Source of the DNA: an uncultured Clostridia bacterium
GTDB taxonomy: Bacteria; Bacillota; Clostridia; Oscillospirales; Acutalibacteraceae
NCBI GenBank assembly: GCA_937877675.1
Contig: CALEIS010000135.1
Coordinates: 173,557-237,556, forward strand
DNA: 64,000 bases
Direction: 5' to 3'
The notes beneath the pieces are model-generated. The model was not told the DNA's origin and did not search any database. It was given only the letters and a program-made list of their open reading frames with translations. Positions within the stretch are counted from its first letter, which is position 1; each line of letters begins with the position of its first letter. Shown piece by piece: positions 5,617 through 57,980 of this stretch. Made by a program: the position numbers and the translations under genes.

Positions 5617-6402
5617 TTATACATAACTATCAACGTATTTCTCCATTACTTTCAAACTATCCTCTCTTGTCCATTTTGCATTACTAATGAACAAATTAGG
5701 TTTGAATGCAACAGAAGTATACTCTTTATAATTGATATTCTAAGGCATCATGAACGCATTACAATTACCTTTTATATTAGGTAACAAATCGACATTGATT
5801 TTCACCAAAGGAGACATTTCAATAAGAACACTAATAACCTTGTCTTCATTGTAACCCATAGTTACACGTTTCTTTAGAATCTGTGCATCTTTAGTTTTAC
5901 CTTCGTTCATCATGTTGAATAAATTATTGATTGCAACGACACCCATCTTACCAAAAGTCTGACAGCATCCCACAATACAAATCTGTGCAAAGTATGTTCC
6001 CATCTCACCAATTTGAGCTTTAGGAATTTTCAACTTATTCATTTCATTCTCAGCAGCAGTGATATAATCAAAGGAGTTCATGACACAATCTGAATCTAGT
6101 TTGATTATGTAATCACAATCAAACTTATCCATAATCTTTTTATATTCTTTGAACATTCCTTCGATACAATCATAACCATTGAGATTACCTTTTCTATCAA
6201 ATGAAGTTTTGATAAGAGTAGGGCTTCCAAAGAGTTCCTTTTTCTTTAGATGTTTCTAACATCTTCCATCATCGAAGACATAAACTCTAACCTCATGCTT
6301 ATCCTTGAACTTATCAATAGTTTTATAGAGAACTTTTAGAGAATTATTAAGGAAGTCTATATCTTTCCAATAACTAAAATAACAAACTGCAATCTTAGAC
6401 AT
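5617..6402 (-). CDS. glycosyltransferase (GT-A-like, DSD motif) read through two TAG codons
   Basis: The ATG at 6400-6402 follows the TAA of the upstream gene by one nt. In-frame TAGs lie at 6256-6258 and 5740-5742. The frame has no TAA/TGA until TAA at 5617-5619. The track shows only the 5740..6156 fragment. Motif KLDSDC. Confidence 0.6.
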
Positions 6403-6404
6403 AA

Positions 6405-7121
6405 TTATAAAATATAATGTTTTTTGATTAAACCGTAAATGCTTTCATCTTTGCAAGATTCCTTTTTTATAGAGTTTCTGTAAATCTCTCCATAAAGATG
6501 AATACACTTTGCACCAAAGACATGATTCATATTGAGCATCCCATTATAGATACCACTTGCATAAAGAGGAGGAATAGGATATAATTCTTTAGAAGGAATT
6601 ACATTGAAGTCATAAGAAGAATAAATGAGATTTACCAAATCATTACCAAGGAAACCCCAAGGAGCTTGAATACGTTGTTCTTCCACAGACAACTTTGCCA
6701 ATTCTTTTTTAGTTGAAATTCTACCATCAGTATCATAATCACAAATGATGGAAGGATTTTCATAAGCGTCAACCACAGCTTTAGCAAGAGGATGACCTTT
6801 TTCGAGAGAAATCATACCAATAGAAATTGTATTTTCTACTTGACCACAAACTGAATTAATAGGGAATTCAAATGGCTGCATACAAACGACATCCAAATCA
6901 GTCCAACGCCCACCCTTATCATAAAGAAGTTTGAATCTAAACCAATCAGAGAAAGGAGCATATGAATTATTCTTTGAATGTTTGAAAACACATTCTTTAG
7001 GAAGAATCTCAGAAGCATCTTTGAGAATACATCCTTTAGGTACTTTAAGAGATTTATTATAACTCCATAAGTTGAATTGGAAACCTAATTTGATAAAAGA
7101 TGTTATGCAAATGTTTTCCAT
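6405..7121 (-). CDS. glycosyltransferase with DXD sugar-binding motif
   Basis: The sequence ...SDWFRFKLLYDKGGRWTDLDVVC... is typical of the Gly_transf_sug-type DXD region. TAA stop. Confidence 0.6.
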   Translation of the reverse strand: MENICITSFIKLGFQFNLWSYNKSLKVPKGCILKDASEILPKECVFKHSKNNSYAPFSDWFRFKLLYDKGGRWTDLDVVCMQPFEFPINSVCGQVENTISIGMISLEKGHPLAKAVVDAYENPSIICDYDTDGRISTKKELAKLSVEEQRIQAPWGFLGNDLVNLIYSSYDFNVIPSKELYPIPPLYASGIYNGMLNMNHVFGAKCIHLYGEIYRNSIKKESCKDESIYGLIKKHYIL

Positions 7122-7130
7122 ATCAGAAAG

Positions 7131-7520
7131 CTAACCACCATGCCAAAAAGAATTAATTTCTTGTTTTTTACTTTTCAATTCAATACTTTTGACATCTTTT
7201 TCTGCCAACACGAAAGTATCAGTACGAACATCATTAGAAGGCATTAGTTCAATAAGTTTCTCAAGGAAAGTATTGAGACTAAAGTTTACAGCAGAAGTCC
7301 AACCACTGAGATTATCGAAACATCTAATCTCAAGGGAAGCTCCTTGTAATCCATAAGGTTCATCTGATTGATAACATGCCCCTTTTTCACCTGTAGGATA
7401 ACCAGGGTCAATTGTAATTTTTACACCACATTGTGCATACGTATCTTTAGGAGCTTTGTGCAACTCTAAGTGCCACAATCCTCTTGCTGCGTCATAAGTA
7501 AAAGGTTTATTAAAATCCAT
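7131..7520 (-). CDS. hypothetical protein; ends at TAG, in frame with 6405..7121
   Basis: 129-aa ORF. Its stop (7131-7133) is TAG. The same frame continues (..HGG*LSDMENIC..) into the glycosyltransferase ORF, so a 371-aa readthrough fusion is possible. Confidence 0.55.
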   Translation of the reverse strand: MDFNKPFTYDAARGLWHLELHKAPKDTYAQCGVKITIDPGYPTGEKGACYQSDEPYGLQGASLEIRCFDNLSGWTSAVNFSLNTFLEKLIELMPSNDVRTDTFVLAEKDVKSIELKSKKQEINSFWHGG

Positions 7521-7855: not shown

Positions 7856-8521
7856 ATGTCTAAGTATACAACAGAAACAGCAACACTTAAAGCACTTGTC
7901 ATCGACACGAATGTTCTTAGGGTAAATGGGTATGAAGTAAATTTCAATGATGCAGGGTTGAGTATTACCCCACCTAAAGTGTAGACTATTCCTGACGAAT
8001 AGCCTGAAAATCCTGGTGAGGGTGGAGATACACCATAGCCTACTCCTACTCCAATTCCACCAATAAATCCTGACATCATAATTGGTGGAGGTGCAACTGA
8101 AATCATTAAAGAAACTGTTATTGAAAAACATAATTCAGTAAAAACAGTAACACTAAATCTTGGTAATATTATTGTTGGTGTTTCTAATAAAAATTATACT
8201 TGTAATATTGACGAAGAAGAGGGTAATATAAGTTTCTCATTCAAAGGAGAAAATGTAGATTCCACAGAAAAATGGATTCCAAGTAAAGTTTTGGTAAACG
8301 GACAAGTTGTTCTAGTTCCAATTCATCGAGGATAGGCTAATGAATGGATTATTTCATTATATTCTCATGGTGATTCATTATCAGATATATATGGAGGTCT
8401 TACAGATGAAAGTATTATAAAGATTTATTTCTATCTTTCTGAATAGGTTGCCATTGAAGAGGATGACTTAGAAGGGGATGAAGAAGAATCACCTGAAAAT
8501 CCTGAAGAACCTACAGAATAA
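7856..8521 (+). CDS. hypothetical protein with five in-frame TAG codons
   Basis: ATG at 7856, TAA at 8519-8521. TAGs include 7982, 8000 and 8036, plus two more near the 3' end. Pro-rich contexts (DE*PENP, TP*PTPTP) read smoothly. The gene is invisible in the standard-code track. Confidence 0.6.
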
Positions 8522-8925: not shown

Positions 8926-9509
8926 TCATCATTTAACATCATAAAAGGACTAGGCGTATCTTCATAATAGAAATACAAACAGTAGTCATCTTTGGTATAA
9001 TCTACAAATACCTTGAACTTCTCCTTTGCTTCAAATCTCCGACAGAAGCGTAACTTACCCTCCTTGGTAACTGTATCACTCTTACATAAGATTAGACTAT
9101 TACTTGCTGTGAGTATCTTACTGTTATATTCAATGCAGTCCCATACCTTATCACCTACCTTGAAGTAATGTATGCCTAACTTGTCATCCTTGCCATGATT
9201 TTTCTTTGAGAGTTTTTTAATAGATGTTTTCATCTTCTTTAGTAACTTCTCATCAAACAACTCTTCCACATCACCTAACACATACTTACCCTCTTCAAAT
9301 TCATAAAAGTCCTTTACTTTGAGAATAGGTTTCTTGGGCTTCTTAGGCTTAGGAGGTTCAACCTTTTTAGGCTCTTCCTTTAGAGGAGGTGGTGGAGTAG
9401 ATGCTAGTTTAGGTTCTTCCTCTTTCTTTTTCCTAGTCCTCTTCTTAGGAGGTTCATTGACAATTACAATAGGCTTTACCTCTTCAACTACTTTCTTCTT
9501 CCTTGCCAT
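8913..9509 (-). CDS. hypothetical protein with Lys/Pro-rich N-terminus
   Basis: 198-aa ORF with N-terminal KKKVVEEVKP...PPKPKKPKKP. TAA stop. Confidence 0.55.
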   Translation of the reverse strand: MARKKKVVEEVKPIVIVNEPPKKRTRKKKEEEPKLASTPPPPLKEEPKKVEPPKPKKPKKPILKVKDFYEFEEGKYVLGDVEELFDEKLLKKMKTSIKKLSKKNHGKDDKLGIHYFKVGDKVWDCIEYNSKILTASNSLILCKSDTVTKEGKLRFCRRFEAKEKFKVFVDYTKDDYCLYFYYEDTPSPFMMLNDEALI

Positions 9510-10212
9510 AAGTTCTTTCCTTGGCTATTTTATAGTAGTTCTCGTCTAATTCAATACCAATGAAATTTCTATTCAATTCCTTTGCAGCAAGAGCAGTTGT
9601 TCCACTTCCCATGAATGGGTCAATAACTAAATCACCATCATTAGAAAGTGTTTTGATAAAGAATTTGATAAGGTCAAGTGGTTTCTGTGTAGGGTGAGTT
9701 CCACATTCCTTTTCTCTCTTAGGAGTAACAGACGTTTCAATGAAATCATGAAGTGCTTTACCATCGTTGTTGAAAGTCCCTGTTTTCTTCTTATAGACGA
9801 AGTATAACCAAGGCTCTGTGCTATTGATAAAGTGTAAGTTCATGTTCCTAGGCATAGGATTAGTCTTATGCCATACACCTACAGTCTTATAATAAAATCC
9901 ATGCTCTTGTGCCATTTCAATAATTGTTTCCAATTTCATAATAGACATGAACATGAGTAATGAACCACCTACTTTACTAACTCTTGCAGCTTCCTTGAAA
10001 AAAGAATTCATAAGTTCTTTCCATTCATCGTAGCCTACATTATCCCAACCTGCTGCAACAAAGAAATTGTCACGCATGTTTTGAAGATTGGCTGCTCTGC
10101 TCTTTGCAAATTCTCCCAAGTTATAAGGAGGGTCAGTTACTATCAAATCAACAGTATCATCACCTATCGTCCCTAATACTTTCAAACAGTCATCATTGTA
10201 TAATTCAAACAT
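9484..10212 (-). CDS. DNA N6-adenine/N4-cytosine methyltransferase (beta class), paralogue 1 of 3
   Basis: The DPPY motif lies N-terminal of the FMGSGTT AdoMet motif. The C-terminal tail NRNFIGIELDENYYKIAKER is shared with the two neighbouring genes. Confidence 0.85.
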   Translation of the reverse strand: MFELYNDDCLKVLGTIGDDTVDLIVTDPPYNLGEFAKSRAANLQNMRDNFFVAAGWDNVGYDEWKELMNSFFKEAARVSKVGGSLLMFMSIMKLETIIEMAQEHGFYYKTVGVWHKTNPMPRNMNLHFINSTEPWLYFVYKKKTGTFNNDGKALHDFIETSVTPKREKECGTHPTQKPLDLIKFFIKTLSNDGDLVIDPFMGSGTTALAAKELNRNFIGIELDENYYKIAKERTYGKEEESS

Positions 10213-10951
10213 TTTCTATTCTTTCTTTTGCAATGTTAAAATAGTTCTCGTCTAGTTCAATACCAATGAAATTTCTATTCAAATTCTTACAAGCAACTCC
10301 ACATGAGCCACTACCCATACAGAAGTCCAAAACAGTATCTCCCTCATTGGTAAATGTCTTAATAAGATTTTCCAACAATGCTACAGGCTTTTGAGTAGGG
10401 TGTAATGACGATGTTTGTTTTTCGCTCTTATAAGTCAATAACTGTGTAGGGTATCTATCATATGTAGGCACATACACACTATCTTTCAAAATATCACCAT
10501 ACACTTTGGTTTTAGTTGCCACATCATTTCGTTTTACATTAGCATGAGACAACTTTTCAGCCTTCCACATCTGAGGATTATATGTAGGCTGTTTTCTATA
10601 AAACACAGCAATCTCCTCAATGTTTCTCAAAGGTTGTTTCTTTGCATTCAAAAATCCTACTGATTGTGTTTTCTGCCAATAATACTTGTACTTGAAGTTC
10701 TTTATGTTGGCACTAATCACTTGACTGCTATAAGGCTCTTGACAGAATAAGATTGTAGGAACATTGACCATCGTATTGTCATTTATTAATCCCCACATCT
10801 CTTCTACATCAATTATGTTATCCCATGTTGCCTTTTTGTTCAAACATCCATAAGGAGGGTCTGCCAAAATCAAGTTAGCCCTCTCTAACAACGATGGGTT
10901 GTCTCGTAAAATTTCTAAACAATCTCCTTGGTATAATTCTATGTTAGGCAT
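10205..10951 (-). CDS. DNA methyltransferase (beta class), paralogue 2 of 3
   Basis: ADPPYG, then CMGSGSCG and NRNFIGIELDENYFNIAKER. It overlaps both neighbours by 8 nt. Confidence 0.85.
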   Translation of the reverse strand: MPNIELYQGDCLEILRDNPSLLERANLILADPPYGCLNKKATWDNIIDVEEMWGLINDNTMVNVPTILFCQEPYSSQVISANIKNFKYKYYWQKTQSVGFLNAKKQPLRNIEEIAVFYRKQPTYNPQMWKAEKLSHANVKRNDVATKTKVYGDILKDSVYVPTYDRYPTQLLTYKSEKQTSSLHPTQKPVALLENLIKTFTNEGDTVLDFCMGSGSCGVACKNLNRNFIGIELDENYFNIAKERIENV

Positions 10952-11717
10952 TTTCTATTCTTTCCTTGGCTATTTTATAGTAGTTCTCGTCAAGTTCAAT
11001 GCCAATGAAATTTCTATTCAAAATCTTACATGCAACACCTGTAGTTCCACTCCCCATAGTAAAGTCTAGGACAGTATCACCTTCGTTGGTATAAGTTTTC
11101 ACCAAGTATTCTAATAATGATAATGGCTTTTGTGTAGGGTGAACATATTTACTTTCACAATCAAAGAACAATACATTGGCAGGGTAATTCGTAAATTTCT
11201 GCACATATTCCTTTCCATCTTGCATGAGTAAGTTATCCTTATTGAGATTAGTATTGGAATAAGAAATCAATCCTTGTCGTTTAGAAGTATTCTTCTTTGT
11301 TTTGTTAATAGGCGTAAGACCTTGTGGAAAATAAGTCATGGGAAATGATTTTCCACCAGCAGAAGCATTACCATTACTGAATACAATAATGTCCTCATAC
11401 TTATTCATAGGTCTATAATTAGCATTTGCAAAACCTGTCTGATGATTTTTCACCCATTTCCAATCATATCTGTATTCTTTCAAATTACTTGTTCTAAGCA
11501 ATGAACTAAATGGCTCGTTACCAAAAAGAACAATAGGTGCTTTATCTTTACGGAGTTGTTTCAATAATTCCCACATCCTTTCAGCAGGAATTATTTTATC
11601 CCATTTACTTCTAGTGGATGAATAAGGAGGGTCAGTAATAATAGCATCAACTTTGACACCCATCTTCACCAACTCATCCATTACCTCTAAACAATCTCCT
11701 TGGTATAATTCAATCAT
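10944..11717 (-). CDS. DNA methyltransferase (beta class), paralogue 3 of 3
   Basis: TDPPYS, then TMGSGTTG and NRNFIGIELDENYYKIAKER. The start was chosen at MIELYQGDC, which forms an ATGA overlap with the upstream gene. Confidence 0.8.
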   Translation of the reverse strand: MIELYQGDCLEVMDELVKMGVKVDAIITDPPYSSTRSKWDKIIPAERMWELLKQLRKDKAPIVLFGNEPFSSLLRTSNLKEYRYDWKWVKNHQTGFANANYRPMNKYEDIIVFSNGNASAGGKSFPMTYFPQGLTPINKTKKNTSKRQGLISYSNTNLNKDNLLMQDGKEYVQKFTNYPANVLFFDCESKYVHPTQKPLSLLEYLVKTYTNEGDTVLDFTMGSGTTGVACKILNRNFIGIELDENYYKIAKERIENA

Positions 11718-12052
11718 CATCCTCCACAAGTCTTGAATAGAACGATTTGAGTATGTACATTAGTCTTGGTCTCCTCAATCGCTGTCTTTATTATTTCAAG
11801 CGCAACAGTCCTTGTAATGTAAAACTTTTCTACAAGTACATCTGCTGCTTCATCATAAAAATCTATCGTCTCAAATTGCTTCAAATCTTCATCAATCCAC
11901 ATTCTACTGCAATTCTCTCCACAGTATAGTGATAATGTATGCTTATCGAAACAACCACTTCTTATCAAATCATTGGCGTATTCTTCACCTATTTCTTGGG
12001 TTTCTTCTGCTGTCTGATTCAACAAGAAGTACAAAATGTTATCGAACTCCAT
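11717..12052 (-). CDS. hypothetical protein
   Basis: 111-aa ORF, tightly packed within the modification island. TGA stop. Confidence 0.5.
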   Translation of the reverse strand: MEFDNILYFLLNQTAEETQEIGEEYANDLIRSGCFDKHTLSLYCGENCSRMWIDEDLKQFETIDFYDEAADVLVEKFYITRTVALEIIKTAIEETKTNVHTQIVLFKTCGG

Positions 12053-12058
12053 GCTCTA

Positions 12059-12652
12059 TTATTTACTCTTTCTCCTCTTCTCCAAGTCATATAGGTAGAT
12101 TTCCTTACCTAATGTCTGCTCATAATGGGCTTCACCATTCTCAAGGGCTTCTCTCAATTTCTTGGCAAAAGGTTTCAATTCACCCTTATACTTTGCTCTG
12201 ATAGCCTTGTCATGGTGTCTCTTACCTTCATGAACAATAACCCTACCCTTGGATGTCTGACCTAAATGCTCAAAGTTGGATGCTTGGTAAATCACTCCCT
12301 TGTGACCATAAGTGTTATCAGCATAGGAGATTACCTTCTTCACATTGGTATTCTTGATTAGCCATTTGAGCGTTCTTCCTATAAAGTAACTCTCAGTATT
12401 CTTAGGCGTATCATCAATGCAACACAAGCGTCTAAGTTCAATGATGTCATCTATGGAGTCAGCATATTTCTTCCAACAGTTAGCCATACCTAATCCTCCA
12501 TAAATCATTGCTCCTACCATTGTGTCACCATCCATGAGTTTGAAGCAATAAATGGATGAGAGACCATTGATATTGTGACTGTAGTGCCACTTCTCAATGA
12601 AGTCTCTCACCTCTATTCTCTCACAAGGCTCTACTGTGTATGTAATTGCCAT
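12059..12652 (-). CDS. Mom-like DNA modification protein (putative adenine carbamoylmethylation family)
   Basis: The motifs KWHYSH ... ELRRL ... SYADNTYGHKGVIYQASNF resemble the phage Mu Mom family as I recall it. A TATAAT box lies 6 nt upstream of the ATG. Confidence 0.45.
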   Translation of the reverse strand: MAITYTVEPCERIEVRDFIEKWHYSHNINGLSSIYCFKLMDGDTMVGAMIYGGLGMANCWKKYADSIDDIIELRRLCCIDDTPKNTESYFIGRTLKWLIKNTNVKKVISYADNTYGHKGVIYQASNFEHLGQTSKGRVIVHEGKRHHDKAIRAKYKGELKPFAKKLREALENGEAHYEQTLGKEIYLYDLEKRRKSK

Positions 12653-15218: not shown

Positions 15219-16724
15219 ATGAAAATTGTTAGTCCTACAAAAGCTACATAGATTTTACAACAACTCATTGATACAGGTAAAAGTGGAGAAGTGACTATTG
15301 GTCTTAAACCTGATTATAGAGTAGATGCAACAGGTCTTGCTTCTCTTATTTCACTTTTAGGGTTGACAGATAAAACAGACCTTGAAGGTGGTGGTTATCA
15401 TGTTGCTAATCCTTTGATTTATGTAAACATTAGAAAAGTTGATTGGGATGGTGAAGTTGTAAATTGGGATTTCCCTGATATGGGACAAGTCACAGCAACA
15501 GAAGATTTTCGTAATTAGTCAAGTTTAGCAATGACAGTGAATGTAGAAGCAGGTACTACTGTTAATTTGAGAACTAATTTCATAACACCTGATAATGAAA
15601 TCATTTACGTTTCTTGGGGTGATGACGATAGTATTTCAACGTATAATACAGGAACAGAAGAAAACGTAACAGAACTTACTCATGTTTATAATACAGCAGG
15701 AACTTATACAATTTTCGTAAAAGGAAAACTTGTAAAAACAACAGTACCAGGCCCTAGCAAAACAACAGATACTGTAACAACCGCTCTTCATTTTATCAAA
15801 CCTACGGTAATTGTAGATGGTTCTATGGGTATTTTAGGTGTATATGAAAAACTTACTGATGTTATTGGAACTATTATTTTAGAGGGTACAGGAACAGTGA
15901 TTAGTAATTTGTTTGTTCTCAATAAAAATATCACTAATGTAAAAGGACTCAAATTAGTATTCCCAGATACATGTATTGACGGTTTAAATATAACTTCAAT
16001 CAATGCAATGTTTGGTATGGGTTGTCAAGAAAATCCCGAACTAAAAGCCAATTTGATAGATGATGTACAACTTATCAATTATAATAGACATTCTATAACA
16101 AAAATTAATACGGCATTCTTTACTTCTGCTATTACAGAATTTCCTTATAGATGGTTTGGAAAAAATGTACAAACTGCTTCACAAGCTTTCAAAAATTGTG
16201 GAAATCTCCAATTTGTACCATCAGGGTTCTTTGAAAAAATAACTTAGGGATATGAAATGTTTTATTGTAATCCTGATGTTGCATCCCCTCTTACAATTTC
16301 ACATAATTTGAAATTCCCAAATTTGACAAATGGAGCAGGTATGTTTGGCAATAGAACATTGTCATTCAATGACATCAAAACGATTTTTGAATCTCTCCCT
16401 AAAAATCCCAATCCTTTGAAAGGTAGAACAGGTAATACTAGGGTCGATGACGTTTCTCCATCCAGTTATTCGATTACTTTTAGTTTTGACCCTGATGAGC
16501 CAAATATCAAACAGAAACTTGTGAAGTATTTCAATCTCAATACAAAGGCTATGGAAAATTGGCATAAAGACAATGATGTGTATTATGGGCAGGAAATAGA
16601 CATGAAAAAACTTTGGGATGGTGGTTGGTATCCTATGTATTTCACTCACTATGGTGATTCATGGGATTATAATAATTATAAAGGTTGGTTCGTGAATTTC
16701 AGAAATCCATATAATTTCACATAA
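15219..16724 (+). CDS. DUF285/BspA-repeat virion protein read through three TAG codons
   Basis: ATG at 15219. In-frame TAGs at 15249, 15516 and 16245. Track ORFs 15291.., 15531.. and 16257.. all share this frame. The repeat motif continues across the last TAG (..GFFEKIT*GYEMFYCNP..). TAA stop. It could alternatively be two genes split at 15531. Confidence 0.55.
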
Positions 16725-20614: not shown

Positions 20615-20804
20615 AAATGTGTTTTGTTTAAGTTGCTTAAGAATAACCCTCATGAGCGTAGTTCCCATGAGGGGGGTTAGGGTACTTCCCTAACGGATTA
20701 CTAATAACTCCGCAATTTCACTTACGAAGTAGTGAAACTCCGCATTCATTGTTACTGTTCATGACCAGTAGAATGTTGAAGCCCAAGTATAACCTAGTTT
20801 TGTC

Positions 20805-20878
20805 AGTTATGGTGAGAATTGAACTCACGACTTTCCTACGCATCACCGTATTCAGTTCTACCACTGAACTACATAACT
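20805..20878 (-). tRNA. tRNA-like gene with non-canonical anticodon arm
   Basis: Good acceptor (agttatg/cataact), D arm (gttc/gaac) and T arm (gtgag-ttcaatt-ctcac). The anticodon region folds only as tacg-gtgatg-cgta, a 6- or 8-nt loop. Confidence 0.35.
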
Positions 20879-42760: not shown

Positions 42761-42775
42761 TTTTTAAAAAAAGAG

Positions 42776-42800
42776 GGTGGCTCATTTGAGCCACCTTTTT
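42776..42800. terminator. bidirectional hairpin between convergent genes
   Basis: ggtggctc-attt-gagccacc, flanked by an A-run and a T-run. Confidence 0.6.
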
Positions 42801-44185: not shown

Positions 44186-44269
44186 GTATATATTTTACCA
44201 TAGTTCTATAAAACACAAAAGGCTTCCCAATAACTTAGGAAGCCAATGAATAAATTGTTTTCAGATAAA

Positions 44270-44740
44270 TTAGTCAACGATGCTAATAAAGTTATTACGC
44301 TTTTTAACAAGCCACTGTTTTTCTTTCATGTCGTATACAGCACATGACTTAGAATTAAGTGTGTTTCCTGAGTATGCCCATACCCAAATTCTTCTACCAC
44401 CTGTTGCAGCACTTGAAATTTCAAGTCTATATCTTCTGCCATCTGGAGTATTTCTGTATTCACCGTAACTATATTCACGACCGTTAGACTTACACAATGA
44501 TAAGAGGTCATTTATTGAAAATTGTTCTCTTTGAAGTGGAGCTTTACGAACAGGCTTACTTGTTACTTCTGCATCTCTCATCTACAAACCATAATTCTCA
44601 AGCAAATACTTGGCAGCTTCTTTCAATACATTTCTCATTGATAACTCAGACTTGGACTTTACTACCAAGTTCTTCTGAGGAAGTACACTCTCATTGAGTC
44701 TTCCACTTACTTTCTTAATCTTTACATTATACTCAAACAT
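44270..44740 (-). CDS. MFEYNV-family protein (paralogue 1) with TAG at the N-domain/C-domain junction
   Basis: MFEYNVKIKKVSGRLNESVLPQKNLVVKSK...ENYGL*MRDAEV... TAG at 44582-84. Both track ORFs are in the same frame. Confidence 0.6.
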
Positions 44741-46089: not shown

Positions 46090-46479
46090 TTATCTAATGA
46101 ACTTTTCGTAATTATCACCTATTGTTTTGCCATCTTGTCCATATGGAATTCGCTTCAAAGACAAGATTGCAGTTTGCATTTCGTGAAGTAGTGCATTTAT
46201 TGTGCTTCCATCATATTCTCCTGTCTCGATGGACTTTGACATTTTATTGATTATTGATAATGATTTGAAGTATTGATTCTTAAAAGAATCGTCAACCATT
46301 TCCACATCAGCACTTTCAATTACGAGACCATACTTTTCCTTATAGAACTTGGAAGCCTCAGCAAATACTTCTTTATCAGACTTTTCCGTCTTGGACTTTA
46401 CAACCAAACTCTTGGAAGGCATTGCACTCTCATTGAGAGAACCACTCACTTTTTGAACTTTTACATTGTACTTGAACAT
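46090..46479 (-). CDS. MFEYNV-family protein (paralogue 2)
   Basis: MFKYNVKVQKVSGSLNESAMPSKSLVVKSK...KEKYGLVIE, plus a unique C-terminus. Confidence 0.6.
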   Translation of the reverse strand: MFKYNVKVQKVSGSLNESAMPSKSLVVKSKTEKSDKEVFAEASKFYKEKYGLVIESADVEMVDDSFKNQYFKSLSIINKMSKSIETGEYDGSTINALLHEMQTAILSLKRIPYGQDGKTIGDNYEKFIR

Positions 46480-48336: not shown

Positions 48337-49062
48337 TTACATTCTTTTATCGTTATTCTTCAAGTTTCTAAACTCTACCTTGAATGTTGTTTCAATCAAA
48401 TCCTCTGTTCTAAATCTTCTAGGACTTTGATTTACATTTCCTAATGTCTCAGGGCATTCGTTGAAGAATTGGAAATAATGAGTTCCTTTATAACCCCACT
48501 TCTCTAATTCTTTTAGAATTTTATTAGCCTTTTCCTCATTGGTAATCTCAGGGTGAATTGTAGTTCTTGTCTCAAACGGAACATTATTACTAATCATGTA
48601 TTCAAGTAACTGTTCCATATGCCATCTAAGCATACTGTTACCGTGGAACTTCAAGTATTCATTAGGAAGGTCAGGGTATTTGTAGTCCAAGGCTACATAA
48701 TCTATCAATCCGTCCTCAATCATCTCAATAACCAAGTTAGGATTAGAACCATTAGTATCTACCTTTACCTTGAACCCTTGCTCTTTACACCACTTCGCAC
48801 TGTCAATTAGATAGTCTCTGTGGAGGGTACATTCACCACCACTGAATACTACATAATCAATGAGATTCTTACGAGAGAGAAGATAATCCTTTATCTCTTG
48901 TGGGTTTAACTCAGGAAGTTGCCCTTTCCATAATTGAACATTATAACAATAGCCACATCGGAAATTACATCTGCTGCTAAACAGAACACAAGATGTATAA
49001 CCTCTCATGTCAATCATGGAAAGTTTCTCCACACCACATACTTTACTAAACACATTACTCAT
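48337..49062 (-). CDS. nrdG: anaerobic ribonucleotide reductase activating protein (radical SAM)
   Basis: CNFRCGYCYN (CxxxCxxC) near the N-terminus. Size and context fit NrdG. Confidence 0.75.
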   Translation of the reverse strand: MSNVFSKVCGVEKLSMIDMRGYTSCVLFSSRCNFRCGYCYNVQLWKGQLPELNPQEIKDYLLSRKNLIDYVVFSGGECTLHRDYLIDSAKWCKEQGFKVKVDTNGSNPNLVIEMIEDGLIDYVALDYKYPDLPNEYLKFHGNSMLRWHMEQLLEYMISNNVPFETRTTIHPEITNEEKANKILKELEKWGYKGTHYFQFFNECPETLGNVNQSPRRFRTEDLIETTFKVEFRNLKNNDKRM

Positions 49063-50024
49063 ACTTTTCTCTTTATTAGAATTCTTGTATAAAGTGCTTT
49101 TCTATCGAGAACAGGGCCTCTTGTTCTCAAAACTTTGCCACTTTTTTCTTCGTATTCTGCATTTTCACCACAGATAAATCCGTTCACATAATCACTTTGA
49201 GAAAACCTATTGAAAATTCCTACAATTTCAAATAAATCCTCTCTCTGCCTATCAATGTAAGTAACAGGAACTCCCATCAGACCATCATAATCAACAGGGA
49301 TGTCTTTACTGTTTTTCACATGAATAGCATCCAAGTTATCATACTTAGGATAATCTTTTTCATTATAATGACATACAGGTTCAATTCCTTTATTATCTTG
49401 TGAGATGTCAAAGTTAGTATACCACCTTACACCATCCACTCTGATGTATTTTACACCTTTTTCATCTATTCTACTTGCCTTTTCACTTAAAGGATAATCA
49501 TCAGGAACTCTAAACTCCCTGTCACCACTATGTATTGAGACACCAAGTCTCACCTCATTTCTCTTGAAATATGGAAACACTTCCTTTGTCACCACTCCTT
49601 TATTCGTTCCAAGAGTAATGAACTTCTTACCGTGTTCCATAATCAACTTCAAATGTTGTCTGAATAAAGAGAATGGAGGATTAGTAACAACTATATCACA
49701 TTGCTTCAAAAACTCAATACATTCTTCACTTCTGAAATCTCCATTACCTTTCATTACAGTTAGTTGCATTTCATCTTTATTGATGTCCTCTAATGTACCA
49801 TGAGGATAAGAAGTACAGATAAGACGCTTCAACCCTAACTTATCAAAATTATCAAAGAAGTATTTTCTAAAATTAGAATAGTGGTCGTCACAGTTGCAAT
49901 ATACAGTTTTATCCTTGAAGAAATGAGTATAATACTTCATTTCTTTTTCAATATCTTCATACGAAGTATAAAATTCATCTGCCTTTCTTCTTTTGGCATC
50001 ATTTAATGTATTTCTAGTTCCCAT
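49059..50024 (-). CDS. adenine-specific DNA methyltransferase (EcoRI-methylase-like)
   Basis: ADEFYTSYEDIEKE...VYCNCDD...VVTNPPFSLF. Confidence 0.7.
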   Translation of the reverse strand: MGTRNTLNDAKRRKADEFYTSYEDIEKEMKYYTHFFKDKTVYCNCDDHYSNFRKYFFDNFDKLGLKRLICTSYPHGTLEDINKDEMQLTVMKGNGDFRSEECIEFLKQCDIVVTNPPFSLFRQHLKLIMEHGKKFITLGTNKGVVTKEVFPYFKRNEVRLGVSIHSGDREFRVPDDYPLSEKASRIDEKGVKYIRVDGVRWYTNFDISQDNKGIEPVCHYNEKDYPKYDNLDAIHVKNSKDIPVDYDGLMGVPVTYIDRQREDLFEIVGIFNRFSQSDYVNGFICGENAEYEEKSGKVLRTRGPVLDRKALYTRILIKRKV

Positions 50025-50897: not shown

Positions 50898-51494
50898 TCA
50901 ACCGTAAGTGTAATAAATGTTACCATTTTTTGCTTGAGTGAAATAAATCTGTACATCGTTAGCATTCATCTCACCGTTTGATTCTTGGACAGTATCAATT
51001 ACGAAATTCTTCCATTCATCTTTACCTCTCCAATTATCATTAGCCATCTCAAGCACTTGTTCAAAATCGTAGTCAGTTACATCTTCACCACAAACTTCTG
51101 CCCAACCATCGAATACCTCTTTTTCGAGTGTCTCCAATTGAACATACTTATTAGCAAAGTCAATGTCTGCTTCTTCGATATAGCCACCTCTCTTAATCCA
51201 AGAAGGGCCGTGAGCATCAGCAATCTCTCTTTCCTTACCATAAATGTCAGAAGGATTGTTATGACCATTGATTACGATTTGTTCGCCATCTACCATCTCA
51301 TAGACAATAGGACTGTCAATTGCAGCTTGCTCTAATACGAGATTGTACTTTTCCTTGAGGTATTCACTCACCTTATCGAATGCCTCTTGCTCAGAAAGAA
51401 CTTTTTTAGATTTTACTACAAATGATTCTTTAGGAGTTGCACTTTCCGTCAATACTCCACTAACCTTTAGAATTGTAATATTATACTCAAACAT
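50898..51494 (-). CDS. MFEYNV-family protein (paralogue 3)
   Basis: MFEYNITILKVSGVLTESATPKESFVVKSK...KEKYNLVLE, plus a unique C-terminus. Confidence 0.6.
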   Translation of the reverse strand: MFEYNITILKVSGVLTESATPKESFVVKSKKVLSEQEAFDKVSEYLKEKYNLVLEQAAIDSPIVYEMVDGEQIVINGHNNPSDIYGKEREIADAHGPSWIKRGGYIEEADIDFANKYVQLETLEKEVFDGWAEVCGEDVTDYDFEQVLEMANDNWRGKDEWKNFVIDTVQESNGEMNANDVQIYFTQAKNGNIYYTYG

Positions 51495-51499
51495 AACCA

Positions 51500-52117
51500 T
51501 TAATAATAACTTGTTCCACTTTGAGGTTTACCATCCCACAATGTTGCATACATGTAAGATTTGATTTTGCAACCAGGTCTTCCACTCCAATCAGAAATCT
51601 TTCTTCTAAATGGCTGAGCACCTTCTACAGGTTCAGGAGTAGGAACACATGTGTAATGTCCCCAATGCTTACCATCTTCCTTTCTCTGTGACTTTACCTT
51701 TATCAATGTAACAGAAGTATCTGTCATTTTCAACACTTTGAAGAAATCAATATTGGTCTGCTCATAACCCCAATCAGCTACAAAGTATTGTGGCTCAGCA
51801 GTTTGTGTGGGCTATTCCTTTACCTTATTCTTTGAACCAGCAGGTCTACCTCTTCTCTTAGCAGTAGGCTTATTGAAAGAAGCTCCACCTTGAGTATTCC
51901 CTGTTGTTACATTACTTGGCTCTTCATTGTCAAATCCACTTACTGAGAATTCTTCTACAACCAAACCATACTTCTGCTCATAGAAATTTGCCACCTTGTT
52001 ATACAAAGTGTTCTCATCAAGTTGTGACTTGCTCTTTACTACAAGATTTTTATTAGGGAGTACACTTTCCGTCAATACTCCACTAACTTTTCTAATTTCA
52101 ACTTTATACTCGAACAT
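51500..52117 (-). CDS. MFEYNV-family protein (paralogue 4) with TAG before the C-terminal domain
   Basis: MFEYKVEIRKVSGVLTESVLPNKNLVVKSK...SKNKVKE*PTQTAEPQYF... TAG at 51812-14. Track ORFs 51812.. and 51500.. share a frame with no other stop between them. Confidence 0.6.
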
Positions 52118-53160: not shown

Positions 53161-54008
53161 TCATCTTCTAATTGTTCATTCCACCACTCTTTGATTTCAG
53201 AAGGATAATCAAAACCTTCACGTTCCATTTCATCAATGTATTCCTTAACAATGAAGTCAATCCTATCGAAGAGGGGATGCTCAGGGTCACTAATCAAAGA
53301 CCATACATCCATTACATTTCTGAAACTGTGTCTTACATCAATTACATCAAGAAGAATGTACAAGATTTCTTCAGGGTCATTTGTAACGAGTTTCTTTTCA
53401 ATAGTCTTGACAGTCTTATTGATACGTCCATTCTTACCCTCATAAGAACGAGTCATTCGGAACAACCCATGTCTCTGGTCAAAGTACAGACGGTCAAAGT
53501 AAAGAACTGTGCCATCCTCATTTGTATGAACAACAGTATCCTTGTACTTGGAGATAGCACGAATAAGACCATTACGTGTAGCAGATTTCCACGGAGTATC
53601 ACCATCTGTCATCATTCCCCATTCTGCCATACCTACATTTTCCACAGGCATCAAATCAACCTGTACATAACGGTCAGTACGCTTGCCATCCTTATCAAAG
53701 ATAGGGAAAGGTATGCTGTGAATGTCTAAACCTTTAGAATAATTGTATTCAGGAAGTGTTACATACAAATCGTTCAAACGCTTGGTAATCCCTTCCTTAT
53801 CCAATCCTAAACGTCTCATCGCTACATTTACATCAAATGCAATGTCAATGTCTCCACAACTTTCACGAACTAAGAATGAACCACAAGGTACATACTCTCC
53901 AATTACCAAACCAAGGGCTTGATAGATATGTTCTCTCAGAACTTCATAAGTAGTTTCCATTTCCTCCTTATGAATTCGTCCTACTGTCTTTAGTGCTTTG
54001 CCTCCCAT
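53151..54008 (-). CDS. Pol-beta-superfamily nucleotidyltransferase
   Basis: GSF...CGDIDIAFD signature. Confidence 0.5.
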   Translation of the reverse strand: MGGKALKTVGRIHKEEMETTYEVLREHIYQALGLVIGEYVPCGSFLVRESCGDIDIAFDVNVAMRRLGLDKEGITKRLNDLYVTLPEYNYSKGLDIHSIPFPIFDKDGKRTDRYVQVDLMPVENVGMAEWGMMTDGDTPWKSATRNGLIRAISKYKDTVVHTNEDGTVLYFDRLYFDQRHGLFRMTRSYEGKNGRINKTVKTIEKKLVTNDPEEILYILLDVIDVRHSFRNVMDVWSLISDPEHPLFDRIDFIVKEYIDEMEREGFDYPSEIKEWWNEQLEDDCK

Positions 54009-54298
54009 AAAATTGTATCGTAATCTGATTCGTTAATTTCGTTAGTCTCCATGTGTCGCCATAATCCTACCACAGTGAGTCTGTGTTCGTCAAGCTCAAA
54101 CTTACGAGGATGTCCTGCAAATTCTCCCAAAGTCTGTACTATCTTTTTGAATTTCTGTTTACCAAATATCTTATACATCTGTCCTTGTGTCCAATCGACA
54201 GTTTCAGTCTTGTAAAGCTCTTGGTAACGGAAGTAATCTCCTTCCAACACAATTACCCATTCGTTAGGTATTCCGTATAATACTCCTGTAAATTTCAT
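53990..54298 (-). CDS. hypothetical protein
   Basis: 102-aa ORF. TATAAT lies 9 nt upstream of the ATG. Confidence 0.5.
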   Translation of the reverse strand: MKFTGVLYGIPNEWVIVLEGDYFRYQELYKTETVDWTQGQMYKIFGKQKFKKIVQTLGEFAGHPRKFELDEHRLTVVGLWRHMETNEINESDYDTILWEAKH

Positions 54299-54307
54299 GG
54301 CACAGTT

Positions 54308-54336
54308 ATTATACTACAACTCCTAATCTCTGTCAA
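54308..54336 (-). promoter_or_regulatory. TTGACA-N17-TATAAT promoter cassette
   Basis: attata at 54308-13 and tgtcaa at 54331-36. Confidence 0.7.
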
Positions 54337-54350
54337 TACTTTTTTGAAGA

Positions 54351-54377
54351 AAAATAAAACCCTCCATCTCAGGAGGG
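54351..54377 (-). terminator. rho-independent terminator after the nrdD tail ORF
   Basis: ccctcc-atctca-ggaggg, with a T-run on the minus strand. Confidence 0.65.
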
Positions 54378-54686: not shown

Positions 54687-55466
54687 TTATGAAAAATCAA
54701 CAATTTCTAATCTTTTTTTGGCATACTCAGTTTGAGCTTCTGATAGTTCAATGCCTATGTAACTCATACCCAAGTTCTTACATGCCATTCCTGTTGTCCC
54801 TGTTCCACTAAAAGGGTCAAGTACAACCATTCCCTCTTTACCGTATAATGACAATAACTTCTCACACAACTCTGTGGAATATGTGCATTTGTTCAAGTCA
54901 TTAGTTCCATCGTTATTCTTTGCTTCAATGAAGTTGTAATAACACTCATAAAACTTCTGTCCATGATGACTAACACTCTTCACAGCCTTGTTTGTAGTGA
55001 ATGTTTTTATCTCATCCTTTCTACAGAGAACAAACACATGCTCCCAAATTCTTGTCAACTGAGTGGCTGATACATTATTAGGAATAGCACTTCTTTTCTT
55101 CCAACAAATGTCATCTGCCATTGTGAAGCATGTATTCCTAAAGATGTCTGCTAATGTCAAATACATACATTCTGTGTTCATTCCACCATAGTTCATGTTC
55201 CATAAGATTACTCCATTAGGTTTCAATACACGCTCAAACTCTTTGAAGTATTGAAGCATCCACTCAGAGTATTCTTCATTCGTCATTGTATCAAGTCTGA
55301 TGTCATAACGAACAGTAGGATGTCCCTTTGTGTTCTGCTTTCCTAATGTTGCTCCACCTTTTTTATTCGTATTATAAGGAGGAGAGGAAAGAATGATGTC
55401 GATAGAATGGGAGGGGTGGTTTTTCAACCACCCCAATGAATCACAGTTATGAAGTTGAAGATTCAT
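54687..55466 (-). CDS. DNA methyltransferase (beta class, SPPY motif; N4-cytosine or N6-adenine)
   Basis: LSSPPYN...DPFSGTGTTG. It sits between the two parts of nrdD. Confidence 0.8.
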   Translation of the reverse strand: MNLQLHNCDSLGWLKNHPSHSIDIILSSPPYNTNKKGGATLGKQNTKGHPTVRYDIRLDTMTNEEYSEWMLQYFKEFERVLKPNGVILWNMNYGGMNTECMYLTLADIFRNTCFTMADDICWKKRSAIPNNVSATQLTRIWEHVFVLCRKDEIKTFTTNKAVKSVSHHGQKFYECYYNFIEAKNNDGTNDLNKCTYSTELCEKLLSLYGKEGMVVLDPFSGTGTTGMACKNLGMSYIGIELSEAQTEYAKKRLEIVDFS

Positions 55467-57406
55467 TATGCCTTATTGGGGTCAATTTCATCAGCATGTT
55501 TTGCCATCAACTCCTTGTCACACAACGGACAGAACTCATGGATACCAGGGATTCTGCCATGCTTAGGACATGTGGAGAATGTTGCTGTGAAAGAAACATA
55601 AGGAAGTCTATAGTTGGTGAGAACTTTACGAAGAAGAACTTTACATTCCTCTGCTGTTACATCCTCATCATTATAAATGTGGAGAACCGTACCACCTGTA
55701 TATGCCTTCTGTAAGTCATCCTGTAAATCCAATACTGCAAATACATCATCGGAGAAATCTACAGGAAGTTGTGAAGAGTTGGTGTAATAAGGAGCATCAG
55801 GGAAACCTGCCTGAATAATGTCAGGATAACGCTTAATGTCTTCACGAGCAAATCGTGTAGTAGTACCCTCAGCAGGGGTTGCTTCCAAATTCCACAATGC
55901 CTTACCTGTTTCCTGATAACCTACCATTCGCTCATTCATCCACTTGAGAATATCCAATGCCATCTTCTGTCCACGTGGGTCAGTAATGTTATACTCATCA
56001 TTGGTGAAATTACGTACCATCTCATTCATACCATTTACACCAATCGTAGAGAAGAATGTATCCAAGGTACGAACATATCTGCGAGTGTAAGGATAAAGAC
56101 CACGAAGATTCATCTCCTCTACAAATGCACGCTTCTTATCAAGAGTAGAACGTGCCATGTCCATCAACTGTCCAAGACGCTTATAGAGAGCCTTCAAATC
56201 TCCCTTGTAAAGATAACCAAGACGAGCCATGTTAATAGTTACTACACCAATAGAACCTGTCTGTGCATCAGAACCAAAGAGACCACCACCACGCTTTCTA
56301 AGTGCCTTACGGTCAAGCTGCAAGCGACAGCACATACTTCTTACGTCATCAGTAGAGTAAGCACTTTCATCACGGATAGTGAGCTTACCGTTTTCATCAC
56401 GGAGATACTGAGAGCCAATGAAGTTCTGGAAATAGGTAGAACCATAGAGAGCAGCATTCTCAAAGAGGAATTCATACTCAGGATTATCCCATTCAAAGTC
56501 CTCAGTAATGTTTACGGTAGGAATAGGGAATGTGAAAGGCTGTCCTACGCAATCACCCTCAGAAAGAACCTCATAGTACATCTTAGAGATAATCATCATC
56601 TCTTTCTTGAAGTGTTCATAAGTGAGGGAATAGAGAATAGTTTCCTCATCACTTTCAAAGTCATTGAGACGCTTACGTGCTTCTGCGAACAATCTATTCC
56701 AACCCTCATTATTAGTATCAGTTTCGCTCTCACAGAACTCACGATAATTACGAACAAAATAAGGTTCTTCACCACGCTGAGGAGCAAGATACTTCATATG
56801 ATTAGGAACAGTCATGTCAATAGTAACATTGCTGAAAGGAGACTGACCCCATCTGCTAGGAACATTGAGATTATAGACAAATGAAAGTAGAGCTTTCTTT
56901 ACATCACGTTCATCAATACCCTCTACTGTCATATCAAAAAACACATAAGGTGCAAGGAGAGTATCGAATGAGGAGAAAGCCTGAGCACCTGCCCACTCAC
57001 TCTGTAGAATACCTACGAAATTAGCCATCTGACCTAGTGCTTCACGGAAATGCTTGGGTGGCTTAGAAGATACACGGCTTACAACACCATTGAAACCTTC
57101 CTGAAGCAAACGCTGCAAATCATGTCCACAACAATAAGCTCCAAGAATGTCAAGGTCATGAATGTGATAATCGCCATTACGGTGAGCATCGCCTTCCTTC
57201 TTAGTGTAAACCTTATCAAGCCAATAGTTAGCAATAGCTTTACCTGCGAGATTATTCACAAGCCCTGCTGCACTATAACCTGTATTAGCATTAGCATTGA
57301 TACGCCAATCACTCTTGTTAATATACTCTTCAACTGATGCTACGCAATCCATCTTCGTAGCACGAGCAGAGTCCGCTTTAATTACATCTTGTAGTCCTTC
57401 AATCAT
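55466..57406 (-). CDS. nrdD: anaerobic ribonucleoside-triphosphate reductase, large fragment lacking the glycyl-radical tail
   Basis: 646 aa with class III RNR hallmarks. It ends just after the Zn-ribbon cysteines (CPKHG...CPLCD) and has no RV.GY motif. Confidence 0.75.
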   Translation of the reverse strand: MIEGLQDVIKADSARATKMDCVASVEEYINKSDWRINANANTGYSAAGLVNNLAGKAIANYWLDKVYTKKEGDAHRNGDYHIHDLDILGAYCCGHDLQRLLQEGFNGVVSRVSSKPPKHFREALGQMANFVGILQSEWAGAQAFSSFDTLLAPYVFFDMTVEGIDERDVKKALLSFVYNLNVPSRWGQSPFSNVTIDMTVPNHMKYLAPQRGEEPYFVRNYREFCESETDTNNEGWNRLFAEARKRLNDFESDEETILYSLTYEHFKKEMMIISKMYYEVLSEGDCVGQPFTFPIPTVNITEDFEWDNPEYEFLFENAALYGSTYFQNFIGSQYLRDENGKLTIRDESAYSTDDVRSMCCRLQLDRKALRKRGGGLFGSDAQTGSIGVVTINMARLGYLYKGDLKALYKRLGQLMDMARSTLDKKRAFVEEMNLRGLYPYTRRYVRTLDTFFSTIGVNGMNEMVRNFTNDEYNITDPRGQKMALDILKWMNERMVGYQETGKALWNLEATPAEGTTTRFAREDIKRYPDIIQAGFPDAPYYTNSSQLPVDFSDDVFAVLDLQDDLQKAYTGGTVLHIYNDEDVTAEECKVLLRKVLTNYRLPYVSFTATFSTCPKHGRIPGIHEFCPLCDKELMAKHADEIDPNKA

Positions 57407-57533
57407 AACTGTGTAATGTGTAATCTTTACTTACTGCCTTTCATTATACGGCAGTTCTATTCATTTGCATGATTTTCAGATAAATTTCACTCATAATCTT
57501 TTGAGTGTTTGAGGATGATAAATAATACACAGA

Positions 57534-57980
57534 ATGTTTAAGTGTTTTAAATTTATTGATGACATGATGAAGCAGCTCAATGAAGCTGATGAAATGCCTA
57601 TGGATGATGATACTGAAATGGGTGGTGATGATGCTGCTATGGAAGACCCTGCTGCTGAGGGAGATATGGATATAGAAGGCGGTGAAGCCCCTGTTGAAGG
57701 TGCGGAAAGTAACCCTGCTTCAAATCCTGAATAGATTGCAGAAGTAGATAACGGTACGTTTATTTCTGACCTTGGTAATGCAGAAGTAGCAAAAACACTT
57801 CTCAAAGCAGTAACAAAAGCATTGCCAAATGAAATTATACCTCCTCAATTTGAAACTGTCACAACTGATAACGCTAATGCAGTAATTCAATACGCAAAAA
57901 ATCTTCTTCAACTTGATGGTACTGATGAAAGTAATCCATATGAAAATATGACTTACGATGATGCTCTCAAAAATGCTTGA
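57534..57980 (+). CDS. acidic protein read through one TAG
   Basis: ORF 57534..57734 ends at TAG 57732-34. The frame continues for 81 sense codons (IAEVDNGTFISDLGNAEVAKTLLKAV...) to TGA 57978-80. The antisense track ORFs here look spurious. Confidence 0.55.

Follow-up and report, generated by a model that had tools for sequence, protein, structure and literature searches.

The 64-kb window analyzed here (the whole stretch of DNA under study, 36.9% G+C, from a contig assigned to an uncultured Clostridia bacterium) is, judging from its gene content, part of the genome of a large tailed phage whose head module is T4-type, and it carries both a group of genes interrupted by in-frame TAG codons and a gene for a tRNA with the anticodon CUA. 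UAG is a sense codon in this window, joining what otherwise appear to be separate fragments of open reading frames (ORFs). Stop-codon recoding is itself already known in phages, and what is new here lies within it, namely the amino-acid assignment, which appears to be glutamate (Glu) rather than glutamine (Gln).

The phage has a gp23-type major capsid protein (phrog_138 match, 3.5e-70; ~30% identity to the capsids of T4-like cyanophages), the gene for which is clustered with those of a gp21-type prohead protease (Peptidase_S77 match, 1e-24) and an adjoining scaffold protein, together forming a T4-like (Straboviridae-type) head module. Other genes in the window encode the anaerobic ribonucleotide reductase NrdD and a radical-SAM activase, an endolysin, and a 1283-aa tail-fiber-like protein with BspA-type leucine-rich repeats (LRR). 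A megablast search with 25 kb of the window against GenBank phages gave zero matches, an exact-protein look-up of NrdD returned no record, and IMG/VR contains capsid relatives that are only ~33% identical, the lineage itself not being present there. Searching a large protein collection recovered relatives on metagenomic contigs as long as 363 kb that have gene order in common with the window, which places it in a jumbo-phage lineage.

Genes were called with a codon-usage model trained on 25 long TAG-free ORFs, and four stop-codon sets were compared. With TAG read as sense, the map contains 74 genes with 86.4% coverage and has a higher total score than under the standard code, which yields 89 shorter ORFs (79.0% coverage), 21 of them TAG-terminated. 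Coverage falls below that of the standard code when either TGA (76.4%) or TAA (71.8%) is read as sense; the gene map gains from TAG read-through only, and TAA or TGA read-through makes it worse. The first-pass annotation of this DNA had held that all genuine gene ends are TAA or TGA and that every TAG-ended ORF continues in frame, and both statements are borne out: the 74 genes end with 56 TAA and 18 TGA codons and no TAG (with the reservation that one site, 37095-37097, could be a terminator), and all 21 TAG-terminated fragments nest in frame within longer TAG-sense genes. If TAG normally accounted for 10% of stops, the probability of finding none in 74 genes would be 4e-4. There are 73 in-frame TAGs, carried by 16 of the 74 genes, and 84% of them have at least 40 open codons on both sides, compared with 1.8% of 1630 other TAG triplets (Mann-Whitney p = 7e-44 for the open-codon contrast between the two groups). 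As had also been proposed, the TAG-containing genes are on both strands and include structural and nonstructural genes. Ten such genes had been listed, of which nine are supported, the exception being that at 37077..37757:

5617..6402, minus strand: 261-aa gene with sense TAGs at 6256-6258 and 5740-5742; coding potential on all three segments.
6405..7520, minus strand: 371-aa two-domain glycosyltransferase-like gene (Gly_transf_sug domain) with a sense TAG at 7131-7133.
7856..8521, plus strand: 221-aa gene with five sense TAGs (7982, 8000, 8036, 8333, and 8444), identified by coding potential only.
15219..16724, plus strand: 501-aa gene with a weak PKD-domain match and sense TAGs at 15249, 15516, and 16245, identified by coding potential.
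37077..37757, minus strand: gene downstream of the capsid gene, with a TAG at 37095-37097, five codons before TAA.
37834..39981, minus strand: major capsid gene of the T4 gp23 type with a ~180-aa insertion domain; one sense TAG (39082-39084) inside the insertion.
42053..42760, plus strand: 235-aa gene with a sense TAG at 42704-42706, 17 codons before TAA; a bidirectional terminator follows the TAA.
44270..44740, minus strand: paralog-family gene with a sense TAG at 44582-44584; the codon is GAG in the relative L010.
51500..52117, minus strand: paralog-family gene with a sense TAG at 51812-51814 (aa 102); coding potential and a phrog_37844 match.
57534..57980, plus strand: acidic 148-aa gene with a sense TAG at 57732-57734; full-length orthologs have sense codons there.

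For the genes at 5617..6402, 7856..8521, and 15219..16724, coding potential is positive in frame for each segment and negative in the other five frames; family searches with the product of 7856..8521 gave no match. Both halves of the glycosyltransferase-like protein are found within single proteins in its homologs P0136-P0138 (365-375 aa), and the residue of P0136 at the TAG position is Glu. The T4 gp23-type profile matches the capsid protein on both sides of its TAG, and the phrog_37844 match of 51500..52117 (protein residues 100-204 to profile positions 97-201 of 202) starts two residues before the TAG. For 42053..42760, the 75%-identical homolog P0147 reads AINIV-E-ERLKTQKMILD where the window has AINLV-TAG-ERLKTNSLVLP, and because the homologous sequence runs across the TAG site, translation continues past it; the site is Glu in four of seven homologs. 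The L021 ortholog of 57534..57980 has 17 TAGs. Orthologs of 37077..37757 diverge at its TAG, which could terminate the gene, with the TAA five codons further on as a backup. Three more ORFs (9484..10233, 53990..54367, and 57973..58485) have a TAG close to their 5' ends, and in at least two of these the TAG is probably upstream of the true start.

The two paralog-family genes belong to a family of four, all on the minus strand (44270..44740, 46090..46479, 50898..51500, and 51500..52117), with a common N-terminus (MFEY.V.I.KVSG.L.ES..P.K.LVVKSK) and differing C-terminal domains; two members have one TAG each. The family is uninformative as to the amino acid specified, as its other members have Val opposite the TAG of 44270. 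The capsid insertion, defined relative to T4 gp23, is largely missing from relatives L010 and L011, and the capsid gene is a compositional outlier, with 46.7% G+C compared to 29-38% in its neighbors and a CAG:CAA ratio of 30:1 compared to ~1:1 over the whole window. In L010, a ~0.8-kb unrelated segment (663..1439) stands in place of 42002..44571 (~2.6 kb) of the window, which contains the gene at 42053..42760 and a methylase gene (42782..44185) and constitutes a variable island between the head module and the paralog family.

TAG codons are distributed very unevenly, and the far higher density that had been noted at 58.5-64 kb is clear, with 28.7 TAGs per 1000 codons in 58469..63937 and 1.33 elsewhere (Fisher p = 5e-37). 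Three adjacent genes account for 52 of the 73 in-frame TAGs:

58469..61723, minus strand: 1084-aa gene with 32 sense TAGs; full-length homologs exist.
61737..62870, minus strand: 377-aa gene with 15 sense TAGs.
62873..63937, minus strand: 354-aa gene with five sense TAGs; 0 to 33 TAGs in its orthologs.

None of seven relatives' copies of the 32-TAG gene translates under the standard code. The three genes have no PHROGs, Pfam, or PDB sequence-profile matches, and probably encode virion-surface proteins; the structure predicted for the 1084-aa product is a string of FN3/Ig-like beta-sandwich domains (mean predicted local distance difference test score, 75), suggesting that it is probably a virion-surface or tail protein, and Foldseek searches with the TAG-rich genes gave domain-level FN3/Ig matches only (TM-score ≤0.16). 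The similarity of the 1084-aa product to multi-FN3 virion and tail proteins of phages is thus confined to individual domains. The endolysin, prohead protease, scaffold, and large LRR tail-fiber-like genes are TAG-free, the capsid gene has a single TAG, and the homing-endonuclease genes within the tRNA array (below) all lack TAG. The suggestion that TAG-rich genes correspond to late transcripts is therefore only partly upheld: the TAG-rich genes probably encode virion-surface proteins, but with these other genes having one TAG or none, TAG use is not a simple early/late marker. Depletion of GAG in the TAG-rich block was considered as evidence of GAG-to-TAG change but was rejected, because CAG is equally depleted, which reflects the general AT-richness of the block. 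No read-through-type context was found at the base following TAG (+4); among genes A-D of the window and its relatives this base is T after 30% of TAGs and after 21% of GAA/GAG codons (chi-square p = 6e-4), a small excess that leans, if anything, toward stronger release factor 1 (RF1) termination contexts.

The first pointers to Glu as the amino acid specified by UAG were the resemblance of the CUA tRNA to the tRNA-Glu of the window, and the distant full-length homologs of the 32-TAG protein, in which Glu exceeds Gln at the TAG positions. Proteins of this lineage in public databases carry Gln at TAG because their gene callers read TAG as Gln; P0001-P0009 and P0135 have Gln at every TAG, and their loci fail to give the stored proteins under the standard code. 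Since the stored proteins had been translated in this way, we worked from the relatives' DNA and let only sense codons count as partners. The window and ten recoded relatives supplied alignments of 17 orthologous genes, giving 350 TAG columns, 329 of which have sense partners. The 1210 pairings with TAG are led by E (28.4%), followed by D (12.0%), T (8.9%), K (8.6%), S (7.5%), N (7.4%), and Q (5.6%). For comparison, the partners of true Glu in these alignments are E, then D, N, and K, and those of true Gln are Q, then K and E. Per observation, the log-likelihood averages -2.62 for E and -3.10 for Q. In a column-weighted test of the 329 columns, E ranks first in 5000 of 5000 bootstraps, with a difference between E and Q of 95 nats (2.5th percentile, 66), and in the 54 columns of the window itself E leads Q by 18 nats. 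When true E, Q, D, and K are each treated as unknown, the procedure identifies them correctly, and each genome taken singly ranks E first. Unanimous columns (those with at least three sense residues, all agreeing) are E in 18 instances, P in three, D in three, M in two, and Q and G in one each, and majority columns (E 36, D 17, Q 5) fit the true-E control and not the true-Q control.

Codon usage leads to the same assignment. The codons most enriched opposite TAG are GAA (3.3x) and GAG (2.1x), whereas CAG, the one-step synonymous neighbor of TAG expected under Gln, is not enriched (0.9x). As the TAG fraction rises the Glu fraction falls (slope -0.55, p = 1e-5), and Gln does not (slope +0.18); in gene A, for example, L021 has 33 TAG, 14 Glu, and 6 Gln codons, and L022 has 0 TAG, 37 Glu, and 9 Gln. 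Within the window, Glu codons make up only 5.4% of the TAG-rich block, but Glu and TAG together make up 8.3%, compared to 7.6% Glu elsewhere. Single relatives also have TAG in place of Glu residues that are strictly conserved. In NrdD, the bracketed residue of LDKVYTKK[E]GDAHRNGD is E in five genomes and TAG in L023, and that of MMV[E]GIDERD is TAG in L021 and Glu in the Thermotoga NrdD (4coi); the scaffold protein of L010 has TAG at the bracketed position of LKENAVLA[E]RTRAN. Four independent sites show a one-step TAG<->GAG difference between close strains, and the closest sense-codon homologs of the genes at 6405 and 42053 have E at the TAG position. TAG sites are, as a class, less conserved than true Glu sites. 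Comparing tables 11 and 15, as had been proposed, thus has a divided outcome: TAG is sense, as table 15 has it, but the comparative data reject Gln and point to Glu, such that table 15 would be the wrong translation for this lineage.

The putative suppressor lies in a large tRNA array, the relevant features of which are:

20804..36079, minus strand: tRNA array of ~30 tRNA genes with homing-endonuclease genes interspersed.
32210..32281, minus strand: tRNA with anticodon CUA, which reads UAG (Rfam tRNA model, 55.6 bits; placed by ARAGORN at 32209..32282).
31994..32065, minus strand: tRNA-Glu(UUC), apparent parent or paralog of the CUA tRNA (69% identity).
28176..28248, minus strand: canonical tRNA-Gln(UUG) with U1-A72; 49% identity to the CUA tRNA and no resemblance.
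32142..32170, minus strand: perfect sigma-70 promoter (TTGACA-17-TATAAT) between the CUA tRNA and tRNA-Glu; conserved in the relative L026.
36780..36808 and 36627..36655, minus strand: two further perfect sigma-70 promoters (12/12 consensus).

ARAGORN predicts 29 tRNAs, all encoded by the minus strand within 20.9-36.1 kb, to which Rfam adds a tRNA-Ser(UGA) (29001..29084) and an aberrant tRNA-like gene (20804..20878). The CUA tRNA folds as a canonical cloverleaf with G18G19, a TTCAAAT T loop, a 5-bp anticodon stem, and an 8-nt D loop. Its positions 6-27, which include the whole D arm, are identical to those of the phage tRNA-Glu(UUC), and both tRNAs have G1.U72, G73, and a 4-nt variable loop. 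Overall, the CUA tRNA shares 62-76% identity with Glu-type tRNAs and 39-51% with Gln-type tRNAs; compared at full length with the tRNAs of GenBank phages, it matches a tRNA-Glu(CUC) best. It carries U11-A24, U13.G22:A46, U35, and A37 and has no residue 47; U11-A24, U13.G22, A46, and the lack of residue 47 are the major non-anticodon determinants for glutamyl-tRNA synthetase (GluRS) in E. coli (PMC9976931). It departs from the Glu type in having C34/A36 in place of U34/C36, as a CUA anticodon must, and G1.U72 in place of G1-C72. The determinants for glutaminyl-tRNA synthetase (GlnRS) and the amidotransferase, U1-A72, G2-C71, G3-C70, and U38 (PMC9976931), are all missing, these sites being G1.U72, C2-G71, U3-A70, and A38, and the tRNA is not of the Gln type.

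In L026, the closest relative compared at the tRNA region (its DUF2828 protein is 87% identical), the tRNA order is that of the window, Pro-Met-[ ]-Glu-Tyr, with precisely the CUA tRNA missing, indicating a lineage-specific insertion in the window. The tRNA-Glu of L026 is also very different from that of the window, and the window's CUA tRNA and tRNA-Glu therefore look like a recent pair. No CUA tRNA was found within the 20 kb examined in relatives L027 and L029, the regions examined around the structural genes of the relatives contain no tRNAs, and IMG/VR gave no match to a pattern combining the Glu-type D arm and the CTA loop. No theta/hepatitis delta virus-like ribozyme or other recoding-linked Rfam family was found near the tRNAs. 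Perfect promoter matches exceed those in shuffled sequences, but the total count of promoter-like sites does not; the array also holds one 11/12 sigma-70 promoter. The aberrant tRNA-like gene at 20804..20878 on the minus strand (Rfam, 47.9 bits; untyped by ARAGORN) has normal acceptor, D, and T arms, but its anticodon arm has a 3-bp stem and a 6-nt loop. The huge phage LR756504 (L031) has an odd Glu-like tRNA with an enlarged anticodon loop that is 76% identical to the CUA tRNA.

The most obvious alternative is that this phage simply uses code 15, with the CUA tRNA reading TAG as Gln and the pairing with Glu reflecting tolerated E-to-Q replacements that arose by GAG-to-TAG mutation. Gln is the sole TAG reassignment reported for phages (10.1101/2021.08.26.457843) and is confirmed by proteomics in crAss-like phages (PMC9523058), and the CUA tRNA retains U35, G73, and G10, which are used by GlnRS. 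Code 15 would also account for the TAG sites that pair with Q, for a close-strain site that is TAG in one genome and CAA in another, and for the Lak-like CUA tRNA whose anticodon arm is similar (see below). Nonetheless, we regard it as unlikely. It does not explain why Q is so far behind E among TAG partners and CAG is not enriched, why E is first in every bootstrap, or why a rising TAG load is paid for in Glu codons and not in Gln codons; it would require that invariant Glu residues of NrdD and the scaffold protein be replaced, and reading the 33 TAGs of L021 gene A as Gln would leave that protein with ~23 fewer negative charges than its orthologs. The missing GlnRS determinants of the CUA tRNA argue in the same direction.

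A compromise, in which partial amidation or charging by both GluRS and GlnRS gives a mixture of Glu and Gln that is tolerated where both are acceptable, seems to us quite unlikely. In its favor, the frequency of Q opposite TAG is about double that opposite true Glu (5.6% and 3.0%), a simple mixture fit assigns ~86% of sites as E-like and 14% as Q-like, TAG sites are the less conserved class, and G1.U72 matches neither G1-C72 of the Glu type nor U1-A72 of the Gln type. However, the phage's own tRNA-Glu likewise has G1.U72, controls show that the Q excess is within the E/Q exchange expected at variable surface sites, and TAG is used at strictly conserved Glu positions of NrdD, where a mixed product would be costly. 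That the TAGs are real stops, in fragmented pseudogenes or with rare programmed read-through, or that they specify pyrrolysine (Pyl), is hardly credible. ARAGORN does label the CUA tRNA 'Pyl', but from the anticodon alone; the tRNA does not have the tRNA-Pyl architecture (a 3-nt variable loop, a 6-bp anticodon stem, and a small D loop without G18G19), and no Pyl genes (pylS/pylBCD) are among the annotated proteins of the window, which is a part of the genome. The TAG at 37095-37097 is compatible with a stop, but coding potential runs in frame across the TAGs, the conserved 1084-aa protein has full-length homologs despite its 32 TAGs, and TAG positions turn over among relatives with the frame kept. 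Sequencing artifact is ruled out, as 50-52 TAG positions are common to independent assemblies.

We therefore favor glutamate as the meaning of UAG. Taken as a whole, the sequence evidence makes it quite probable that TAG encodes Glu in this jumbo phage with a T4-type head, through a tRNA-Glu-derived CUA tRNA that may gate translation of the TAG-rich genes. Likewise, the lineage probably uses a code not described for viruses or prokaryotes, with UAG specifying glutamate and with a suppressor that is a duplicated phage tRNA-Glu charged by the host GluRS. Several observations weigh against this interpretation. Anticodon positions 34 and 36, which are strong GluRS determinants in E. coli, are C34/A36 and not U34/C36, and amber suppressors made from tRNA-Glu in E. 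coli are largely charged with Gln. A CUA tRNA from a 26%-GC Lak-type huge phage has a similar anticodon arm (65% identity), and for Lak-type phages Gln is inferred at TAG in the literature (PMC8346664). A minority of TAG sites pair with Gln: the window TAG in 57534..57980 is Q in three relatives, three of the six TAGs in the L010 copy of gene 37077 are opposite Gln, and two 97.6%-identical strains have one site with TAG<->CAA, a two-step change. The comparative observations are also not phylogenetically independent, although bootstrapping by column and breaking the data down by genome lessen this concern. The annotated proteins of the window include neither a release factor nor an aminoacyl-tRNA synthetase, and several late genes (endolysin, prohead protease, and scaffold) are TAG-free, which bears on the proposed gate and its timing. 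Given the tRNA caveats and the Gln-paired sites, the tRNA is only supporting, and it is the comparative data that carry the assignment to Glu.

A plausible sequence of events under decoding as Glu is that host RNA polymerase would transcribe the tRNA array early from its perfect sigma-70 promoters. The CUA tRNA, as a duplicate of the phage tRNA-Glu that has kept the D-arm and variable-loop determinants for GluRS, would be charged with glutamate by the host enzyme, and would not be amidated to Gln, presumably because it lacks U1-A72. It would then decode UAG as Glu in competition with RF1, with termination unaffected because every gene ends in TAA or TGA. TAG-rich genes could not be completed before the suppressor accumulates, and TAG load may thus act as a gene-specific translational gate. 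Among relatives, TAG load per ortholog ranges from 0 to 33 for gene A and from 18 to 79 for gene C, and such fast turnover within one gene fits a tunable gate. In some relatives, TAG outnumbers GAA and GAG together in certain virion genes (33 TAG compared to 14 GAA/GAG) and would then be their main Glu codon, which points to selection for the gate rather than drift.

Other features of the window concern DNA modification and a possible RNA-protein module. DNA-modification genes are unusually dense (9484..12652, 42782..44185, 49059..50024, and 54687..55466), with at least six DNA methyltransferases (four N6/N4 methylases, an Eco57I-type methylase, and an EcoRI-methylase-like protein) plus a Mom-like protein, a set that suggests heavy anti-restriction investment. 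Within the tRNA array, a Y-RNA-like element at 31515..31633 on the minus strand (Rfam YrlA, 43.9 bits, E = 5e-7, under the gathering score of 69) is directly upstream of a gene at 29808..31340, also on the minus strand, for the DUF2828/DUF7788 protein, which is Ro/TROVE-like and matches phrog_850 ('RNA-binding protein'); together these look like a phage-borne Ro-Y RNA module. The DUF2828 protein has thousands of homologs, including one encoded by a chromosomal copy in an Akkermansia metagenome-assembled genome (L028, 56% identity) beside Cas12, Cas1-Cas4, and Cas2.

Stop recoding in phages is established, but the field holds that only TAG-to-Gln and TGA-to-Trp occur. If UAG specifies Glu here, then code change in phages is not limited to the two synthetases thought to be intrinsically susceptible, and there is a biochemical question as to how GluRS accepts a CUA anticodon while GlnRS and the amidotransferase are kept away. 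Annotation tools assume table 15 (PMC11210395; PMC13037316), and Gln is built into table 15, prodigal-gv, and Pharokka-gv; database translations would then be wrong at every TAG, placing a neutral residue for a negative one at 3-8% of positions, with consequences for structure prediction, homology searches, and proteomic searches. The phage would also provide a natural Glu-inserting amber suppressor, and a system for examining the gate hypothesis in which orthologs of close relatives have from 0 to 33 TAGs.

TAG-recoded phages using code 15 (crAss-like, Lak, Garnet, Amethyst, Jade, Sapphire, and Agate) are reportedly described by Ivanova (2014), Devoto (2019), Borges (2021/2022), and Peters (2022). 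Like the window, they have TAGs in frame within phage genes while the host presumably keeps the standard code, encode a tRNA(CUA) of their own, and end their genes only with TAA or TGA. In both, TAG is spread unevenly and is enriched in some virion genes, TAG load changes fast from one relative to the next, and the genomes are large and rich in tRNAs. Unlike these phages, Glu is found opposite TAG here, the suppressor is a tRNA-Glu paralog, and the window has no RF2 or synthetase gene; its endolysin and most of its head genes also escape recoding, unlike the lysis-gene enrichment that Borges et al. emphasize. In Lak phages, Gln aligns with TAG in 75-85% of cases and E only occasionally (PMC8346664), and in crAss-like phages Gln at TAG was shown by mass spectrometry (PMC9523058). 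A translational gate was proposed earlier for recoded phages (10.1101/2021.08.26.457843). We found no report of TAG-to-Glu in phages in a literature search that was not exhaustive.

The closest parallels for the amino acid are ciliate nuclear codes with UAG as Glu, including the peritrich code of table 30 (UAA and UAG as Glu) and that of Oligohymenophorea sp. PL0344 (UAG as Glu, UAA as Lys). As in our proposal, UAG comes to specify glutamate through a suppressor derived from tRNA-Glu; however, the ciliate examples are eukaryotic nuclear genomes with a whole-cell change of code and altered eRF1 specificity, whereas here a virus would impose its code on a cell with the standard one, and just some of the genes use it. 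Laboratory suppressors of E. coli, such as supE (tRNA-Gln CUA) and engineered tRNA-Glu(CUA), similarly set a single CUA tRNA against RF1, with identity determined by the host synthetases. In E. coli, tRNAs with a CUA anticodon tend to be recognized by GlnRS, a point also cited by Borges et al. (10.1101/2021.08.26.457843). The phage tRNA differs from the E. coli suppressors in keeping the full Glu-type D arm and variable loop, without the acceptor-stem determinants for GlnRS.

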